Positions 4,534-59,017 of a stretch of DNA of 64,000 nucleotides are shown here, one piece after another. The notes under the pieces were generated by a model. The model saw nothing but the letters and a program-made list of their open reading frames with translations, was not told the origin of the DNA and did not search any database. Position 1 is the first letter of the stretch, and each line of letters opens with the position of its first letter. The stretch is from Spirochaetota bacterium (lineage in GTDB: Bacteria; Spirochaetota; UBA4802; UBA5550). Location of the stretch: assembly GCA_050298055.1 (NCBI GenBank), contig JBNKTL010000017.1:26306-90305 (forward strand). The letters run 5' to 3'. The position numbers and the translations under genes were made by a program.

Positions 4534-5106
4534 ATGAAAAGAATCAATTTGAGAACCCTCTATAGTTTTTTCGTTTTCTGTATAATAGTAACCTCCTGCG
4601 GCAGCAAAAATGTACGGCTGGAGGATGTTCCCTCTACAGAATACAGGGGGTTTCTCATACAGGAGCCAAGGGGGGGGCTCGATATCAGGAAACCCCTGGA
4701 CTTTATCATGATCAATGAGCCGTTGTTTTTCAGGCTGTTGAAAAAGCACGTGAAAAAAATTGAGTACAGCGCATATCTCTCTAATAGAAATTTTCCCTAT
4801 TACGATATCATTATTATCTCGCAATTTACCCTGGAGAGAGGGGAGGCCCATTCCGCGTCCGTCCTTCTCCATGAGCTCTTCCACATCATTCTGAACACTA
4901 TTCGGAGAAACAGATCACACTGTGGTATTGATGAGAAAACTTTTTTGCTGAAAGCGGGAATAAAGTATGACGACATTAAAGGTATGAAGAAGAATGCCGA
5001 GGAAAGGGCAGCGTACCTGTTCCAGTATGGTTTTATAAAACAATATGGTACTGAAAGAGATATCGATTATCAGAGGCAGAAACTTGAAAAGCTTGGCATT
5101 CACTAG
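4534..5106 (+). CDS. Putative lipoprotein with zincin-type HExxH motif
   Basis: Lipobox-like IVTSC; LLHELFH and downstream EERAAY. Confidence 0.55.
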   Translation: MKRINLRTLYSFFVFCIIVTSCGSKNVRLEDVPSTEYRGFLIQEPRGGLDIRKPLDFIMINEPLFFRLLKKHVKKIEYSAYLSNRNFPYYDIIIISQFTLERGEAHSASVLLHELFHIILNTIRRNRSHCGIDEKTFLLKAGIKYDDIKGMKKNAEERAAYLFQYGFIKQYGTERDIDYQRQKLEKLGIH

Positions 5107-52763: not shown

Positions 52764-53003
52764 GGCAAAATGCCTTCATTAAGATAAAATATAAATAATA
52801 TGACTTTTGGACAAGATCTTTTTTTCCGGAGAGACATATTTTCTTTCCCCGATTTCTTTTCTCCTGATGAAATATTGGCACGGAAGAAGAAATTTACTTG
52901 AAATTATATGAGAATTATTCTTTTGTTAATGTTATTTATCAGTTGAAAAGTGTATGGTACTTGCCTCATAAGAGTGAAGAGAAATACCGAAAATTCATAT
53001 GCA

Positions 53004-55148
53004 ATGAATGAAACTGTGACAAAAAGTGATAATGTAACATTACTGCCCAGGGGAGGTTATCTTATCGATACCCCTACCGGTTATATTCAGATCGGTTCAC
53101 CTCCTGAAACCATTAAGGATACCATGTATATGGAAAAGGGTGTACCGGAGATATTTGTATTATCCGGTGAACTCTTTAACTGGATCAAGGGAATAAGTGT
53201 CGCTGAGATAGAATTTCCCATATATTATAACTTTTTTATTAATAGCAAGAAGACCCACATACTCTGTGAAAAAGATCAACTCTCAAGGATAAAAAGGGTC
53301 CTCCAGGAGGCCATATTCGGTCCCCGGAGAATTGACCTGAAAAGAGACCTGGACCCGTCAATGGACCCCGGCATTTACGATATCAAAAGGGAGATGGAGT
53401 ATTTCAGCGGAAGCCTGAAGATGTCAAACCTTGTGGGTTTCGGTCTTTTTAAAAATAACAGCTATACCTACAAAGGAATAACCATCAAGAGAGATGAAGA
53501 CAACAGCTTTAAGATATTCCACGGGAAAGAGATGCTTGCCCATGTCCCGGGAAAGATTGATTATAAGCCCACATACGAGATAGGTGAACGGCTTGCGGAA
53601 CCGTACATCCCGCCCCTTTTCGGCGTAACATGTCTCGGCCCCAGCCACGGATTTGATCCTACGGCAAATACATCCGGTTTTATCATATGGCTCAACCACC
53701 AGGGAATTATGGTTGATCCGCCGGTGAACTCGACGGAGTGGCTGGAGGATTCAAACATCAATCCGAAACTTATCGATTCGATAATTCTTACCCACTGTCA
53801 CGCGGACCACGACGCCGGGACATTCCAGAAGATACTTGAGGAGAGCAGGGTCACCGTCTATACCACGCAAACCGTAATAGACAGCTTCATGAGAAAGTAC
53901 TCTTCCCTGTCAGGCCTGTCGGTATCATACCTCATGAAGCTTTTTGATTTCCACCCGGTAACAATTGGCGAGCCGGTTTTTATCAACGGCGGCAGGTTTG
54001 ACATGTTCTATACCCTCCACTCCATACCCACTGTGGGGTTCAGGATGGAGTTCCAGGACCAGTCTTTTGTTTACAGTTCGGACCACAATAACGATCCCAA
54101 ACTCCACAGGAAGCTCCTCAACGAAAAGATCATCAGCAAAGAGAGATACGAGGAACTAAAGAATTTCCCCTGGGATTCCAAGGTTATCTACCATGAATCG
54201 GGAGTACCTCCCCTGCATACACCCATAGATTATCTCAATTCTCTGCCCCATGAAATCCAGGCCCGTACGGTTGTGTACCATATCGCGGCAAAGGACTTTC
54301 CCGAAAAAACGGGCCTTACCCTGGCAACCTTCGGGATTGAAAATACCCTTTACTTTCCCACGGAATCTCCCCGGTTCGAAAAGGCATACCAGATACTGGG
54401 TCTCCTGAAGAACCTCGATTTTTTCGAGGACATTCCGGTGAACAAGGCGCAGGAATTCATTGACATTATCGAAGAGGAGAACTACCGGAAGGGTGACCTC
54501 ATTGTTAAAAAGGGGACCACCGGGGACAAGTTCTACATGATACTCCACGGGAACATCTCCGTGGATACCGGGGGCCTCGAGATGAAGAAGATTTACGGGG
54601 CTTACGATTATTTCGGAGAAGTGGCCCTGATTACCGAGGCCAAGAGGGCCGCGGATATTTACGCCGAGACGGATATGGTTGTGTATACCATCACCCGGGA
54701 CAGGTTCCTGAACTTCATTGTGGGAACGGAATTTGAAAAAACACTGAAGCGCCTTGTAAAGATCAGGAGCAGTGAGACATGGAACCTCCTCTCAATGAGC
54801 AAGTTTTTCCAGCACTGCACATCCTCCCAGAAGACATGGCTGGAATCGATTTTCCAGCCGGTTGAGCTGACAAAGAAGGGGACCCTGATAAAAGAGGGCG
54901 AGCATGTTGAGTTTATCTATATCATACGTAAAGGTGAGGTAGAGGTAAAGAAGGGAAGAAAGAAGATCGCCGCGTTAAAGCGGGGTGATTTTATCGGTTC
55001 AATGCTCAAGATCTACAACAGTGAACCGGCAGAGCATACCTTTTCCCCCACCGGTCCCGTTTCCCTCTATGCCATGCAGAGAAAGGACATCCTGAGGTTT
55101 CTTGACAAGAACCCGGGAATTTTAATGAAATCGGTCTATGATTTTTAG
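53004..55148 (+). CDS. Metallo-beta-lactamase-fold cyclic nucleotide phosphodiesterase with two cNMP-binding domains
   Basis: THCHADHD; FGEVAL...RAA cNMP site; second, degenerate cNMP domain. Confidence 0.88.
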   Translation: MNETVTKSDNVTLLPRGGYLIDTPTGYIQIGSPPETIKDTMYMEKGVPEIFVLSGELFNWIKGISVAEIEFPIYYNFFINSKKTHILCEKDQLSRIKRVLQEAIFGPRRIDLKRDLDPSMDPGIYDIKREMEYFSGSLKMSNLVGFGLFKNNSYTYKGITIKRDEDNSFKIFHGKEMLAHVPGKIDYKPTYEIGERLAEPYIPPLFGVTCLGPSHGFDPTANTSGFIIWLNHQGIMVDPPVNSTEWLEDSNINPKLIDSIILTHCHADHDAGTFQKILEESRVTVYTTQTVIDSFMRKYSSLSGLSVSYLMKLFDFHPVTIGEPVFINGGRFDMFYTLHSIPTVGFRMEFQDQSFVYSSDHNNDPKLHRKLLNEKIISKERYEELKNFPWDSKVIYHESGVPPLHTPIDYLNSLPHEIQARTVVYHIAAKDFPEKTGLTLATFGIENTLYFPTESPRFEKAYQILGLLKNLDFFEDIPVNKAQEFIDIIEEENYRKGDLIVKKGTTGDKFYMILHGNISVDTGGLEMKKIYGAYDYFGEVALITEAKRAADIYAETDMVVYTITRDRFLNFIVGTEFEKTLKRLVKIRSSETWNLLSMSKFFQHCTSSQKTWLESIFQPVELTKKGTLIKEGEHVEFIYIIRKGEVEVKKGRKKIAALKRGDFIGSMLKIYNSEPAEHTFSPTGPVSLYAMQRKDILRFLDKNPGILMKSVYDF

Positions 55149-55462: not shown

Positions 55463-56497
55463 ATGCGTTATAGCCTGGCAATTAATGGTTACGGTCGTAT
55501 CGGACGTTGCGTATTGCGCGCCCTCTACGAGGCCGGTTTGCAAAAAGAAATGCAAATCGTTGCCATCAATGAGCCTGCCGATCTCAATACCATTTGCCAT
55601 CTGACCAGGTACGATTCAACCCATGGCCGTTTCCCCGGCCAGGTCAGTTGCGGAGACGGTCAGGTACTGAATGTTAACGGTGACCGGATAAGCGTTTATC
55701 AGCAGAACGATCACAGCCTGCTTAACTGGCGGGACCAGCATATTGACCTGGTCCTGGAGTGTACCGGGGAAGTGAACACTATCGATGATGCCGGGCTGTT
55801 GCTCAGTGCCGGTTCCCGGCGTGTGTTGTTTTCTTATCCCGGTGAGGCGGACCTGATGGACAGCACCATTGTTTATGGTGTGAATGAGGCCCGGATTTCC
55901 GCGGAGCAGCGTTTTGTTTCCGCGGCTTCCTGTACCACCAACTGTATCGTCCCTGTCATAAAGGTGCTGGATGATGCCTTCGGTATCGAGGCGGGGACGA
56001 TTACCACGATTCACTCCTCCATGAATGACCAGCCGGTTATTGATGCTTATCATCATACCGATCTGCGTAAGACCCGGGCCGCCGGCCAGTCGATTATACC
56101 GGTTGATACCGGTCTGGCCAGAGGAATTGGCCGTGTTTTACCGCATATGGAAGGTGTATTTACCGCCCATGCCCTGCGTGTTGCCACCATTAATGTTTCG
56201 GCCATGGATCTGGTGGTGTTGGTTCGCAGGGATGTGAACAGCTCCCGGGTCAATGCCGTTTTGCAGCAGGCGGCTGAAGGTGGATTGGCAAAAATAATGG
56301 GTTACACAACAGAGCCCCTGGCCAGTTGTGACTTTAACCATGATCCGCGTTCGGTTGTTGTGGATGCCAGTCAAACCTGTGTCAGTAACAGCCGCCTGGT
56401 TAAGGTATTATGCTGGTTTGATAACGAATGGGCTTACGCCAACCGCATGCTGGATATTGCCATGGTAATGAAGCAACTGGATTTCGAAAGTCAATAA
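55463..56497 (+). CDS. epd: Erythrose-4-phosphate dehydrogenase (GAPDH family)
   Basis: INGYGRIGR, ASCTTNC, HSSMNDQPVIDAYHHTDLRKTR (Epd-type), WFDNEW. Confidence 0.85.
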   Translation: MRYSLAINGYGRIGRCVLRALYEAGLQKEMQIVAINEPADLNTICHLTRYDSTHGRFPGQVSCGDGQVLNVNGDRISVYQQNDHSLLNWRDQHIDLVLECTGEVNTIDDAGLLLSAGSRRVLFSYPGEADLMDSTIVYGVNEARISAEQRFVSAASCTTNCIVPVIKVLDDAFGIEAGTITTIHSSMNDQPVIDAYHHTDLRKTRAAGQSIIPVDTGLARGIGRVLPHMEGVFTAHALRVATINVSAMDLVVLVRRDVNSSRVNAVLQQAAEGGLAKIMGYTTEPLASCDFNHDPRSVVVDASQTCVSNSRLVKVLCWFDNEWAYANRMLDIAMVMKQLDFESQ

Positions 56498-56610
56498 CGG
56501 AACAAATTTTATAAAGTTGCCGGCTATTAATTTAAGGAATGTAGTGATATTTTCGGATAAACATTACCGGGTTACGACCCTGTTTTTAAGAATAATAATT
56601 CGGCGCTCCA

Positions 56611-56682
56611 CAATATCAATAATATCGATAATAACTATTGATAATATTAATACTTGACATTCTCGTTATTACCCTGACCATG
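56611..56682 (+). promoter_or_regulatory. Putative promoter and operator of the tRNA/DCCP locus
   Basis: TATCGATA-N5-TATTGATA imperfect palindrome (56623-56643) and 9-bp repeats immediately upstream of TTGACA (56654-56659); weak -10 GACCAT. Confidence 0.45.
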
Positions 56683-56686
56683 TCCC

Positions 56687-56777
56687 GGATCGGTTGAGGG
56701 GGCTGGGCCCCCCGCGGGCTGCAAACCCGTCGGAAAGCTTATATGCTTTCGGGTGGTTCGATTCCGCCTCCGATCTC
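56687..56777 (+). tRNA. Non-canonical tRNA: tRNA-Sec-like fold with GCA (Cys) anticodon (selC*-like tRNA-Cys or tRNA-Sec(GCA))
   Basis: Acceptor GGATCGG/CCGATCT; D arm GGGGGC-TGG-GCCCCC; anticodon arm GCGGG-CT GCA AA-CCCGT; variable arm GAAAGC-TTATAT-GCTTTC; T arm GGTGG-TTCGATT-CCGCC. Confidence 0.85.
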
Positions 56778-56798
56778 ATGGAATAATAATTTTTAACA

Positions 56799-56935
56799 GT
56801 AACTACTCGGCTCTATGGAGAAATAAACCTGTTTATCAAAATATCAACAGGATGTCCCCGCTCCTTCGGCTGCGGGGACATCCCGGTTATTTTTTTAATA
56901 AATATGATTAGTCTTTAACATGGCTGAGTAGCAAC
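56799..56935 (+). mobile_element. MITE-like element copy
   Basis: TIRs GTAACTACTCGGC...GCTGAGTAGCAAC; internal AAAATATCAACAGGATGTCCCCGC..CTTCGG..GCGGGGACATCC. Confidence 0.75.
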
Positions 56936-56960
56936 TTATAGTGAAAAAAGAGGTACCTTT

Positions 56961-58259
56961 ATGAATGCGGCAAAATTTGAAGTAAAATCCTATCCGAAGA
57001 TGTGGGAAAGTCTGGACATGGATGTTGAAAGGTTTGATAAAGCACGCCTTGCGCTTGGAGAAGTCTACACAAATACATTTCTTTCCCAGGAGAACCGGCC
57101 CCGCATGATGCGCTATTTTGATGAGATGGTATCTGAAATTTTTGGACGCCGTATTGAGGAGCTGCTTGAAGTAAAGAAATCGGGTAAGCCTGTAGTGGGG
57201 ACTTTTTGTGTTTATATCCCCGAAGAGATCGTTGTCGCCGCAGGGGGCGTATGCGTGGGTCTCTGCGGAGGATCACAGGGCTCCGTACCTGATGCGGAAA
57301 AAATTCTTCCCAGGAATATCTGCCCCATGGTCAAGTCCGCTTACGGTTTTAAAGAGGGGAGAATATGTCCCTACTTCCAGAGTGTTGATTTTGTCTATGG
57401 AGAAACCACCTGTGACGCGAAGAAAAAGACATGGGAACTCCTTGACCGGCTGGTGCCCACCCATGTGATGGAGATCCCCCAGATGAAGAAAAAGCGGGAT
57501 AAAGACCTGTGGCTGGAGGAAGTAAAAGATTTCAAAACAAAGGTGGAAGAGATCAGTAAAACAACGATATCAACCGAAGATCTGAAAAACGCCATTAATG
57601 TCATCAATAATAAACGAAAAGCCCTTCAGGACCTTACAAGATTAAGGGCCCACAATCCCGCCCCCATCAGCGGAAGAGATGCTTTGCTTATTGAGCAGAT
57701 TGCATTTTATGATGAACCTGTCCGTTTTGCCGATAAGCTCAATGAGTTGTGCCGGGAGCTTGAAGAACGGGTCAGCAGCGGAACAGGCATTGCTGCCGGC
57801 GAATCTCCCCGGGTCATGATATCGGGAACTCCTATGGCCCTCCCCAACTGGAAGGTGCATAACCTTGTGGAAAGTGCCGGGGCCGTCGTGGTCAATGAGG
57901 AAAGCTGTATTGGCACCCGGTATTTTAAAGATCTCATTGATGAAGATAAAAATTCACTGGACGAACAGCTTGACGTGCTTACGGACCGTTATATGCGGAT
58001 AGACTGTTCCTGTTTTACTCCCAATGATGAACGGGTTGACCAGGTTTTGAAAGAATTTAAAGATTCCCGGGCCCAGGGTATCCTTCACTATTCCCTCCAG
58101 TTCTGTCACACATATAATATCGAAGAGGTAAAAATCCGGGAAGCCTGCGAAAAGGAAGGCATCCCCTATCTTTCCATTGAATCCGATTACTCACCGGAGG
58201 ATGTTGGACAGCTGCAGACCAGGATCGAGGCTTTCCTGGAACAGATAAGGGAGCAATAA
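56961..58259 (+). CDS. Double-cubane-cluster protein / 2-hydroxyacyl-CoA dehydratase family
   Basis: GTFCVYIPEE, LCGG, NICP, ETTCDAKKK, EESC, DCSCF, QFCH, IESDYS..D.GQL.TRIEAF. Confidence 0.9.
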   Translation: MNAAKFEVKSYPKMWESLDMDVERFDKARLALGEVYTNTFLSQENRPRMMRYFDEMVSEIFGRRIEELLEVKKSGKPVVGTFCVYIPEEIVVAAGGVCVGLCGGSQGSVPDAEKILPRNICPMVKSAYGFKEGRICPYFQSVDFVYGETTCDAKKKTWELLDRLVPTHVMEIPQMKKKRDKDLWLEEVKDFKTKVEEISKTTISTEDLKNAINVINNKRKALQDLTRLRAHNPAPISGRDALLIEQIAFYDEPVRFADKLNELCRELEERVSSGTGIAAGESPRVMISGTPMALPNWKVHNLVESAGAVVVNEESCIGTRYFKDLIDEDKNSLDEQLDVLTDRYMRIDCSCFTPNDERVDQVLKEFKDSRAQGILHYSLQFCHTYNIEEVKIREACEKEGIPYLSIESDYSPEDVGQLQTRIEAFLEQIREQ

Positions 58260-59017
58260 TGCTTATCGGTGTAGATCTCGGGTCACGGGCCATTAAGATC
58301 GCCGTGATGGTCAACGGTGCGCTTCATGATTCCCAGAAGAAAGAAAGCGGTTTTGAACCGCATACCCAGGCGAAAAGTATGCTTGCGGCATACAGTCCCG
58401 GTAAAATTATAGCAACCGGCTACGGGAGGCATCTTGCCCAGAAACATTTTGCCCATGAAGTCATCACTGAAATTAAGGCCCATGCACTGGGGGCGCGGCA
58501 TTTTTTCCCTGACTGTACCACTGTTCTCGATGTGGGAGGACAGGACTCCAAGGTCATTTCACTTGACGGGGAGGGAAGGGTCATAAATTTCCAGATGAAT
58601 GACAAATGCGCGGCGGGGACAGGCCGCTTTCTGGAAATCATGGCCGCCTCCCTGGGCTATACAATAGGTGAATTTGGTGATGCGGCCCTTTCCTCAACCA
58701 GGGAGGTGTCTATTAACAGCATGTGTACCGTGTTTGCCGAATCGGAAGTTATTTCAATGAAAAATTCGGGTATCTCTCCCGCTGATATTGCCAGGGCCGT
58801 TCACCTGTCCGTTGTGAACAGGCTGGCTGCCATGCTTGAGAGAATTGGCATTGGAGAATCAATCGTCTTTTCCGGCGGGGTCGCCAATAACCGGTGTATT
58901 GTCAAACTGCTGGAGGAGAACCTGAATAAACCGGTACATATACCGGAGACCCCTGATATTGTGGGGGCAATCGGTGCTGCCGTTTATGCCCGGAATCACA
59001 GTCCGGGTGCCGTCTGA
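58259..59017 (+). CDS. ATP-dependent activase/reductase (HgdC/BadFG, DCCP-R type)
   Basis: GVDLGS, ATGYGR, DVGGQDSK, MNDKCAAGTGRFLE, CTVFAESE. Confidence 0.95.
   Translation: MLIGVDLGSRAIKIAVMVNGALHDSQKKESGFEPHTQAKSMLAAYSPGKIIATGYGRHLAQKHFAHEVITEIKAHALGARHFFPDCTTVLDVGGQDSKVISLDGEGRVINFQMNDKCAAGTGRFLEIMAASLGYTIGEFGDAALSSTREVSINSMCTVFAESEVISMKNSGISPADIARAVHLSVVNRLAAMLERIGIGESIVFSGGVANNRCIVKLLEENLNKPVHIPETPDIVGAIGAAVYARNHSPGAV

Follow-up and report, generated by a model that had tools for sequence, protein, structure and literature searches.

Two lines of published work bear on the locus described here. In the text and machine-readable supplement of Mukai et al. (2016; NAR 45:2776, PMC5389517), selC* tRNA-Cys species are described as a class whose acceptor/T-stem arrangement is specific to each phylum, and Table S1 of that paper includes a Thermodesulfatator atlanticus species with anticodon GCA and no encoded CCA. 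For the double-cubane cluster proteins (DCCPs), the text of a preprint by Haft (2022; 10.1101/2022.07.06.499078) reports that 955 of 970 high-scoring NF040772 proteins are found in SelD-containing genomes and that DCCP genes adjoin a selenoprotein-rich locus, and it associates DCCP with SelD and with SAO and names a selenium-bridged cluster as a formal possibility. Table 1 of Lin et al. (2015; PMC5322559) counts an HgdD-like subunit and an activase, neither of them discussed, with the STRING partners that YedE, YedF, a LysR-like regulator and DUF3343 have in Slackia. Here, we analyse a stretch of 64,000 nt from a Spirochaetota bacterium (GTDB lineage UBA4802; UBA5550; assembly GCA_050298055.1, contig JBNKTL010000017.1, positions 26,306 to 90,305 of the forward strand), hereafter the window, in which a selC*-type tRNA-Cys gene lies 5' of co-oriented genes for a DCCP and its DCCP-R-type ATP-dependent activase.

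With a probability of roughly 0.55, we propose that the selC* tRNA-Cys and the genuine DCCP pair are separate units of one selenium-associated accessory neighbourhood, and that the tRNA does not serve the cysteine ligands of the DCCP. An earlier interpretation of the same letters (the sequence-only reading) had instead taken the tRNA for the head of the DCCP operon and, possibly, for a dedicated supply of cysteine or selenocysteine (Sec) to the cluster ligands. Its description of the layout is accurate: the tRNA, a copy of a miniature inverted-repeat transposable element (MITE), the DCCP-like gene and the reductase gene are co-oriented, and the two coding sequences overlap by 1 nt.

The window tRNA and the selenocysteine machinery of its genome

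ARAGORN detects a sole tRNA in the window, a 90-nt tRNA-Cys with anticodon GCA at 56688–56777 (+), and Infernal matches the Rfam tRNA-Sec model RF01852 from end to end at 56687–56776 with 61.1 bits (gathering score 47; E 1.3e-11). Together with an alignment of homologues, these results place the gene, from G1 to the discriminator U73, at 56688–56776 (+). It has a long variable arm, a 6-bp D stem and no encoded CCA. The tRNA is therefore non-canonical, as had been noticed from the letters alone, in that a Sec-like body carries the Cys anticodon.

Of the 40 nearest genomes, 4 have a homologue (G013, G019, G028 and G035), and G331 and G351, which belong to the same order as the window genome, also carry one. 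The consensus of five homologues (the window tRNA and four from the same order) comprises 29 pairs, 13 of which show compensatory changes. It forms a cloverleaf with a 6-bp acceptor helix, a conserved 7:66 mismatch, a 6-bp D stem, a 5-bp anticodon stem closing the loop CUGCAAA, a 6-bp variable arm and a 6-bp T stem. Two acceptor pairs of the window tRNA differ from those of its relatives, and both are compensated. The last aligned column, at the 3' end, is U in all five homologues, whereas the true selC of the same genome ends in G73.

The window genome (G000; 199 contigs, 4.7 Mb, 53 tRNA and tmRNA genes by ARAGORN) also encodes a canonical 73-nt tRNA-Cys(GCA) on contig C16 and a 90-nt tRNA-Sec(UCA) on contig C5 (both by ARAGORN), the latter followed by selA and selB. 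The window tRNA is a third, extra species beside the canonical tRNA-Cys and this true selC. SelD, encoded at C39:25483–26403 (−) and scoring 360.8 bits against TIGR00476, is probably a selenoprotein itself because its gene contains one in-frame TGA. The genome has one cysS over the cut-off (475.5 bits) and no second selB, since the sole full-length SelB match is the one beside selA on C5. Matches to the tRNA-Sec model (E ≤ 1e-8) were found in 38 of 151 genomes sampled from the window's phylum, against 135 of 151 in the order of genome G070, so the organism belongs to a phylum with patchy use of selenocysteine.

On these sequence features, the window tRNA is an added member of the selC* tRNA-Cys class as described in the text and supplement of PMC5389517, and not the undescribed kind that the sequence-only reading had supposed. 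The assignment follows because a Sec-like body above the RF01852 cut-off is combined with U73 and GCA in a tRNA that is additional to the canonical tRNA-Cys, in a genome with the whole Sec apparatus (selA, selB, selC and selD). According to the same parts of that paper, selC* tRNAs of the Thermodesulfatator/Smithella type share with the window tRNA the Sec-like body, the long variable arm, the 6-bp D stem, U73, the GCA anticodon and the lack of an encoded CCA, and their genomes likewise have both a canonical tRNA-Cys and all of selA/B/C/D. At both the 5' and the 3' end, the T. atlanticus entry of Table S1 is laid out like the tRNA of the window's lineage. The 8/4 acceptor/T-stem form with bulge A51a, which characterizes delta-proteobacterial selC*, is absent. 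Unlike the Desulfococcus-type 8/4 form tested in that work, the window tRNA is predicted to have 6 bp followed by the 7:66 mismatch and a 6-bp T stem. We regard the 8/4 form as a subtype trait that does not define the class, because the arrangement differs by phylum in the text of Mukai et al. (2016) and the Thermodesulfatator entry shares the window layout.

A further comparison is offered by the selC*-selB*-cysS* locus of Desulfobacterales and Syntrophobacterales (Fig. 5 of PMC5389517), where, as in the window, a Sec-like Cys-tRNA gene leads co-oriented protein genes. The tRNA of that locus has A1:U72 and anticodon UCA, whereas the window tRNA has G1:C72 and GCA and is therefore no opal suppressor by normal pairing. 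That locus has a second selB 3' of the tRNA and, in one subgroup, a truncated cysS as well. The window genome also differs in lacking a second selB, in having a single cysS and in placing a DCCP and an activase gene 3' of the tRNA. Among the loci examined here, the A1:U72, UCA type with a selB-like gene following it, as in the selC*-selB*-cysS* locus, is represented by L073, L088, L089, L156 and L175. Judging from its identity elements and the gene content of the genome, the window tRNA is most likely charged by the single ordinary CysRS.

The score above the tRNA-Sec gathering cut-off would also agree with a true tRNA-Sec carrying a sense anticodon, which would receive serine, undergo conversion by SelA and be brought by SelB to particular UGC or UGU codons. 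We consider this very improbable. The discriminator is U in all five homologues, against G73 in the genome's own selC, and the predicted acceptor has 6 pairs and a conserved 7:66 mismatch in place of the 8 acceptor-helix pairs that SelB requires (PMC7609411). Moreover, the Cys codons of the adjacent genes are not followed by a hairpin resembling a selenocysteine insertion sequence (SECIS), as detailed below.

The double-cubane protein and its activase

The DCCP gene, at 56961–58259 (+), encodes 432 aa, and the gene for the DCCP-R-type ATP-dependent activase/reductase of the BcrAD_BadFG family, at 58259–59017 (+), encodes 252 aa; the stop codon of the first and the start codon of the second share 1 nt, as TAATG. 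The DCCP scores 494.7 bits against NCBIfam NF040772 (equivalog cut-off 350) and 412 bits against PF06050, and matches PDB chains 6eno_A and 7yyl_C over its full length (E 1e-152). The activase scores 183 bits against PF01869 and 235.4 bits against TIGR00241 (cut-off 125.4), and matches PDB chains 7yyl_E (1.3e-45) and 4eht_A (3.2e-55). In the PDB, 6ENO and 7YYL are named only 'dehydratase family protein' and 'activase'; we take them to be the DCCP and the DCCP:DCCP-R complex of Carboxydothermus hydrogenoformans. The homology of the window DCCP to that protein is full-length and includes the Cys residues of the cluster motif, and its ATPase partner corresponds to 7yyl_E.

The sequence-only reading had counted about 12 Cys codons of the TGT/TGC type and no in-frame TGA in the DCCP gene. 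The count is exactly 12, every one TGT or TGC, with no in-frame stop. Eleven of the 12 align with Cys in 6eno_A and 7yyl_C, namely Cys 83, 102, 121, 151, 316, 349 and 382 together with 98, 136, 264 and 351, and the cluster-ligand motif is present. Compared with the 7-Cys motif as printed in the preprint of Haft (2022), the first spacing is X18 (printed X19) and the fourth X164 (printed X166–170), while the alignment to the solved protein is ungapped as far as Cys151. Of 80 orthologue loci, 79 retain the DCCP and activase genes as a pair, and the remaining one is cut by a contig end. Taken together, the family profiles and structural alignments identify the window pair as a genuine DCCP with a DCCP-R-type ATPase, as proposed before, with cluster binding and reduction predicted.

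At another locus, L129, short DCCP-like fragments with an internal stop (4816–5066) lie downstream of an intact DCCP–activase pair and are probably a decayed duplicate.

Recurrence of the adjacency between selC* and DCCP genes

The association of Sec-like tRNAs with DCCP genes was examined in three samples of genomes. Sample (a) consisted of the 78 genomes behind the 80 DCCP-orthologue loci, scanned with Infernal. Within 2.5-kb flanks, 5 of the 80 loci (L125, L142, L073, L088 and L089) have a long U73 tRNA. In L125 it is a 96-nt tRNA with anticodon GCA whose 3' end lies 24 nt ahead of the DCCP start, and in the other four a UCA tRNA lies 3' of the activase gene. A U73 Sec-like tRNA is present in 13 of the 78 genomes, and 8 of these 13 have a DCCP gene no more than 7.4 kb away; Infernal added three same-strand adjacencies, in G070, G065 and G072, at distances of 3.2, 5.6 and 7.4 kb. 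The carriers of this sample exclude an unclassed tRNA (G077), second matches ending in G73 (in G077, G102 and G116) and a tRNA-Ser (G082). The unclassed tRNA of G077 (L157, 9989–10080, −) is 92 nt long, with anticodon UCA, U73 and an encoded CCA, and its body is unlike all selC* types seen here, so it stands outside the counts.

Sample (b) comprised 151 genomes evenly drawn from the order of G070 and not chosen for DCCP. Eighteen of them carry a U73 Sec-like tRNA, and 8 of these 18 have a DCCP gene within 10 kb (G058, G059, G065, G070, G124, G130, G139 and G174); in G124 and G139 the adjacent genes match NF040772 with 468–470 bits. A gene above the NF040772 cut-off is present in 75 of the 151 genomes, mostly as one copy, and in 14 of the 18 carriers, while G189 has one sub-threshold match. 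With mostly one DCCP gene in about 3 Mb, chance would be expected to produce about 0.1 adjacency among these 15 carriers. As a control, the true selC was compared by eye with the DCCP genes in the 151 genomes: it lies within 10 kb of a DCCP gene in none of them, and a single sub-threshold case (G062) was seen at 10.9 kb.

Sample (c), taken from the order to which the window belongs, has 7 carriers, and in 3 of them (G000, G331 and G351) the tRNA and a DCCP gene are adjacent. In G331 and G351 the order of genes is DCCP (464–470 bits), a gap of 52–57 nt, tRNA(GCA) and then MsrBA.

Over all samples, the adjacency is present in 15 of 31 carrier genomes, and the tRNA and the DCCP gene are co-oriented in all 15. 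The 15 cases span three DCCP subfamilies (the orthologue group of the window and two others, with identities to it of about 45% and about 48%), at least four tRNA types and at least eight architectures. The window is thus not the only DCCP locus with such a tRNA, and the sequence-only reading, which depended on the existence of others, gains 14 further genomes in which the two are co-oriented within 10 kb. On the strength of these genome comparisons, the adjacency of selC* and DCCP genes is a real, recurrent linkage and not an accident.

A separate regularity was seen in genus g30 of the window's order, where selC*(GCA) is always followed by a bifunctional MsrB/MsrA gene (L182, 8818–9792, −; L183, 10355–11332, +; L034, 1601–2578, −). 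In 2 of its 3 genomes a DCCP gene also lies directly 5' of selC*(GCA), with no activase gene adjoining.

Selenium genes at the shared loci

The arrangement of genes at these loci was determined with NCBIfam and Pfam scans. YedE, YedF, LysR_Sec_metab, IscA_HesB_Se, SelD and selB genes stand beside selC* tRNAs, all over their NCBIfam cut-offs. In two loci they accompany a tRNA placed ahead of a DCCP pair: L180 reads YedE / x – tRNA – selB* – DCCP – activase, and L181 reads YedF ... YedE / x – tRNA – DCCP – activase, the tRNA of L181 ending about 120–150 nt before the DCCP start. L125 has tRNA – DCCP – activase – rhodanese – TusA/DsrE (YedF-like). In L088 and L089 the order is HesB – DCCP – activase – x – rhodanese – tRNA – selB*, of which L073 and L175 are a variant with a tandem rhodanese directly 5' of the DCCP gene. 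A further arrangement, HdrA – tRNA – MvhD – (FdhA fusion) – HesB – MIP – x – DCCP – activase, is found in L152, L153 and L173, and L155, annotated in part only, is similar. Two further selC* loci read YedE – x – tRNA – LysR_Sec_metab (L176) and IscA_HesB_Se – tRNA – SelD (L179). A HesB, rhodanese or YedF-like gene is present in the 2.5-kb flanks of 46 of the 80 orthologue loci, HesB in 32 of them. The HdrA, MvhD, FdhA, HesB-like and Msr families include selenoproteins.

Among Desulfobulbales-type genomes, a Sec-like tRNA of about 99 nt with anticodon UCA and U73 stands exactly between the HdrA-like and MvhD (FlpD) genes in eight loci (L151, L152, L153, L155, L159, L160, L172 and L173), at about 9.9–10.1 kb of each locus (L152: 3723–3822), and is undetected by ARAGORN. 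In loci of the same order without the tRNA, such as L075, the HdrA and MvhD genes are about 20 nt apart. The HdrA-like gene 5' of the tRNA in L153 (10040–13172, −) is split into two overlapping open reading frames in different frames, a candidate for frameshifting, assembly error or recoding.

The loci described here agree with the Lin et al. (2015) and Haft (2022) texts in that DCCP-type subunits and activases are partners of selenium genes; unlike the loci here, those texts name no tRNA partner. The text of the preprint uses the word 'tRNA' a single time, on a different matter, and names none of YedE, YedF and HesB, although its supplements may hold more. The text and machine-readable supplement of Mukai et al. 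(2016), figures aside, mention no dehydratase, activase, rhodanese or HdrA, and no pair such as the DCCP pair that is the partner of selC* in the window. Full-text literature searches found no paper that joins a double-cubane protein with a tRNA, selB, selC or tRNASec. Within the limits of these searches, the link between DCCP and selenium is known statistically, and the adjacency of selC* and DCCP genes appears to be unreported.

The specificity of the adjacency for selC*, as opposed to the true selC, and the presence of selenium-donor and carrier genes nearby would also be expected if Cys-tRNA(selC*) were a substrate or cofactor of a DCCP-dependent reaction, such as one in which tRNA-bound Cys and Sec are interconverted. 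Amino-acid conversions that depend on tRNA exist, for instance those of SelA and SepCysS. Such direct chemistry seems highly unlikely here, given that the family scans detected no tRNA-binding domain in the DCCP or the activase, that the loci contain no homologue of a tRNA-dependent transferase except selB*, and that most DCCP loci lack the tRNA.

The spacer between the tRNA and the DCCP gene

In the window, 183 nt (56778–56960) separate the tRNA from the DCCP gene. Short-word blastn with this spacer returned 33 further matches, partial copies that are spread over 24 other contigs of the genome, whereas in the same search the upstream spacer and the tRNA matched nothing but themselves. A 6-copy alignment shows inverted termini and sets the bounds of the window copy at 56799–56935, giving an unstranded dispersed repeat of 137 nt whose ends are inverted repeats and whose centre is a GC hairpin. 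For the spacer, the predicted fold has −55.9 kcal/mol (z −5.16). Being short, non-coding and dispersed, with inverted termini, the repeat is confirmed as a MITE.

Inside it lies a terminator-like element on the forward strand (56850–56896), formed by a 12-bp stem (56850–56861/56872–56883), CGGTTA and a run of 7 T. The stem and the T-run are 6 nt apart, and a consensus terminator scan flags the element in part, with 6 sites found in the region against 2.8 expected. Further downstream, a sigma-70-like promoter match on the forward strand (TTAACA-16-TATAGT, 56915–56942, 10 of 12 consensus positions) has its −35 box within the right end of the MITE and its −10 box just beyond it, although promoter-like sites as a group are at chance level (4 found, 4.2 expected). 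A ribosome-binding site, AAGAGG, precedes the DCCP start. Because the MITE, with its terminator-like hairpin and T-run, stands between them, the tRNA is probably transcribed apart from the DCCP pair, and it would not head the operon as the sequence-only reading had it.

Removal of the MITE would leave a spacer of 46 nt, comparable to the tRNA–DCCP spacers of 24–57 nt in other lineages, so the tRNA and the DCCP gene were, we infer, once tightly coupled. The tRNA–MITE–DCCP junction is no assembly artefact, because a 2001-nt contig from a second run (X2) of the same study covers 56300–57349 with no differences.

Cysteine codons and the question of a dedicated tRNA

The sequence-only reading proposed that the tRNA supplies Cys or Sec for the ligand codons of the DCCP, or acts, as Cys-tRNA, as a sulfur carrier when the [8Fe-9S] cluster is assembled. 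The co-oriented adjacency in the window and 14 other genomes and the short gaps between tRNA and DCCP gene in L125 (24 nt) and L181 would be in line with such a module. The coding sequences point the other way. Over the whole full-length match, none of the 80 DCCP orthologues (67–84% identical to the window DCCP) has an in-frame TGA or other stop. When the 40 nt 3' of all 16 Cys codons in both genes were folded for a SECIS-like hairpin, no outlier emerged, the best being Cys264 at the 5th percentile of codon positions. One paralogue had been flagged as bearing '1 TGA', yet no stop falls within its aligned region.

The distribution of the tRNA also argues against a dedicated role. The scan of DCCP homologue loci that had been suggested as a check shows that the tRNA recurs at some of them, and that Sec-like tRNAs are absent from the 2.5-kb flanks of 75 of the 80 orthologue loci; the same holds for the 1.5-kb flanks of 29 of 29 homologue loci in relatives of the window genome (both scans by ARAGORN). 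ARAGORN misses the UCA-type tRNAs of about 99 nt, which only Infernal finds, so flank scans made with it alone may undercount. Since most loci have no Sec-like tRNA, DCCP is made without one. In addition, the genome has a canonical tRNA-Cys, U73 favours charging with Cys over Ser or Sec, and we know of no way of aiming a tRNA at one mRNA other than SelB with a SECIS element. With no TGA, no SECIS-like hairpin and a tRNA that is mostly absent, a private supply of Cys or Sec to the cluster ligands is therefore unsupported, and we give the dedicated module, in either form, very little credence.

Gene neighbourhood and origin of the DCCP pair

The window DCCP is 67–84% identical to orthologues of Desulfobulbales type (n=80) and shares 49% identity at the most with the DCCPs of 40 related genomes, whereas the tRNA is of the type of the window's own order. 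This suggests acquisition of the DCCP pair by transfer, either beside a selC* of the resident type or along with one. The GC content of the pair is not anomalous, so base composition supports transfer neither way. Members of the orthologue group usually have a HesB(Se)-type gene, rhodaneses or HdrA–MvhD 5' of them; the window has none of these.

The neighbours in the window (GAPDH, MFS transporter, enoyl-CoA hydratase, PFK and a cyclic-nucleotide-binding/metallo-beta-lactamase protein) were found neither beside selC* in the loci of relatives that were searched nor beside DCCP in the 80 orthologue loci. The last of these, a protein of 732 aa encoded two genes 5' of the tRNA (52950–55148, +), combines a metallo-beta-lactamase fold with two cyclic-nucleotide-binding domains. 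An origin of the region as a genomic island was considered and rejected: the 19 open reading frames of 37.8–63.7 kb include no integrase, repeats of the tRNA of at least 14 nt are absent elsewhere on the contig, and there is no GC anomaly.

A functionally unrelated tRNA and DCCP pair, joined by rearrangement or by the horizontal arrival of the pair beside a tRNA gene, would account for the lack of selenium or sulfur genes nearby in the window and for the different affinities of the two parts. tRNA genes are frequent insertion points. The selC* genes of four relatives (G013, G019, G028 and G035) also have unrelated neighbours, namely FdhA/HdrA, DeoC/DHQS-II, LexA and MsrBA. We nevertheless consider coincidence unlikely, because the adjacency is always co-oriented and occurs for DCCPs of three subfamilies with selC* genes of at least four types, and because the true selC shows no such adjacency. 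Neither an integrase nor a direct repeat of the tRNA end was found on the contig, and the GC content of the pair is unremarkable.

Proposed role and implications

Under our preferred reading, that of two separate units in a selenium-associated accessory neighbourhood, the window tRNA is an extra Cys tRNA with the body of a Sec tRNA and the Cys identity marks U73 and GCA. It would be charged by the ordinary CysRS, read UGY codons and act in translation, and its Sec-like body may permit handling by SelB. DCCP and DCCP-R would act on a small molecule or a carrier that bears selenium or sulfur, and selC* and the DCCP pair would have been co-selected as accessory parts of a selenium trait (selenium economy). 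The MITE with its terminator-like hairpin would then have inserted into the former 46-nt spacer. The reduction of elemental selenium to selenide needs a very low potential, which fits an ATP-driven reductase.

Several points weigh against this reading. In the window itself, no selenium or sulfur gene flanks the pair. Ten of the 18 carriers in sample (b) have no DCCP gene within 10 kb, with contig ends falling inside the examined stretch in 3 of the 10, and most orthologue loci lack the tRNA in their near flanks. The carrier counts overstate the number of separate events because related genomes are not independent, and they reduce to about eight architectures. The division into two transcription units is read from the spacer elements, among which the promoter-like match by itself is at chance level. 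An anticodon GCA reads ordinary Cys codons and cannot rescue UGA, so the role of UCA-type selC* as a Cys fallback at UGA is not directly transferable to the window tRNA. Finally, the literature searched contains no biochemical link between DCCP and selenium.

A more specific version, which we put forward only tentatively, is that the selC* tRNA-Cys and the DCCP/activase form a co-selected two-part module for selenium scarcity. Here, the ATP-driven DCCP would release selenium held in a refractory form or on a carrier and so supply SelD; candidate carriers would be the proteins of the neighbouring genes, HesB(Se), rhodanese, YedF and YedE. The Sec-shaped Cys-tRNA would keep selenoprotein-type mRNAs translatable with cysteine. 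The window would then be a minimal remnant of such a module (tRNA, about 46 nt, DCCP, DCCP-R), later split by the MITE. If true, this would provide a long-sought physiological context for DCCP and a function for the GCA-type selC* tRNAs.

Two puzzles converge at these loci, the physiological substrate of the double-cubane proteins and the role of Sec-shaped Cys tRNAs, especially those with anticodon GCA. The window itself contributes new members, in a new arrangement, of two known kinds, as both the tRNA class and the enzyme family have already been described. Its value is that of a comparative lead: selC*, unlike the true selC, is repeatedly a co-oriented neighbour of DCCP and activase genes in selenium-gene clusters. 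The published statistical link between DCCP and selenium is thereby narrowed to testable loci and cultivable-type gene arrangements.

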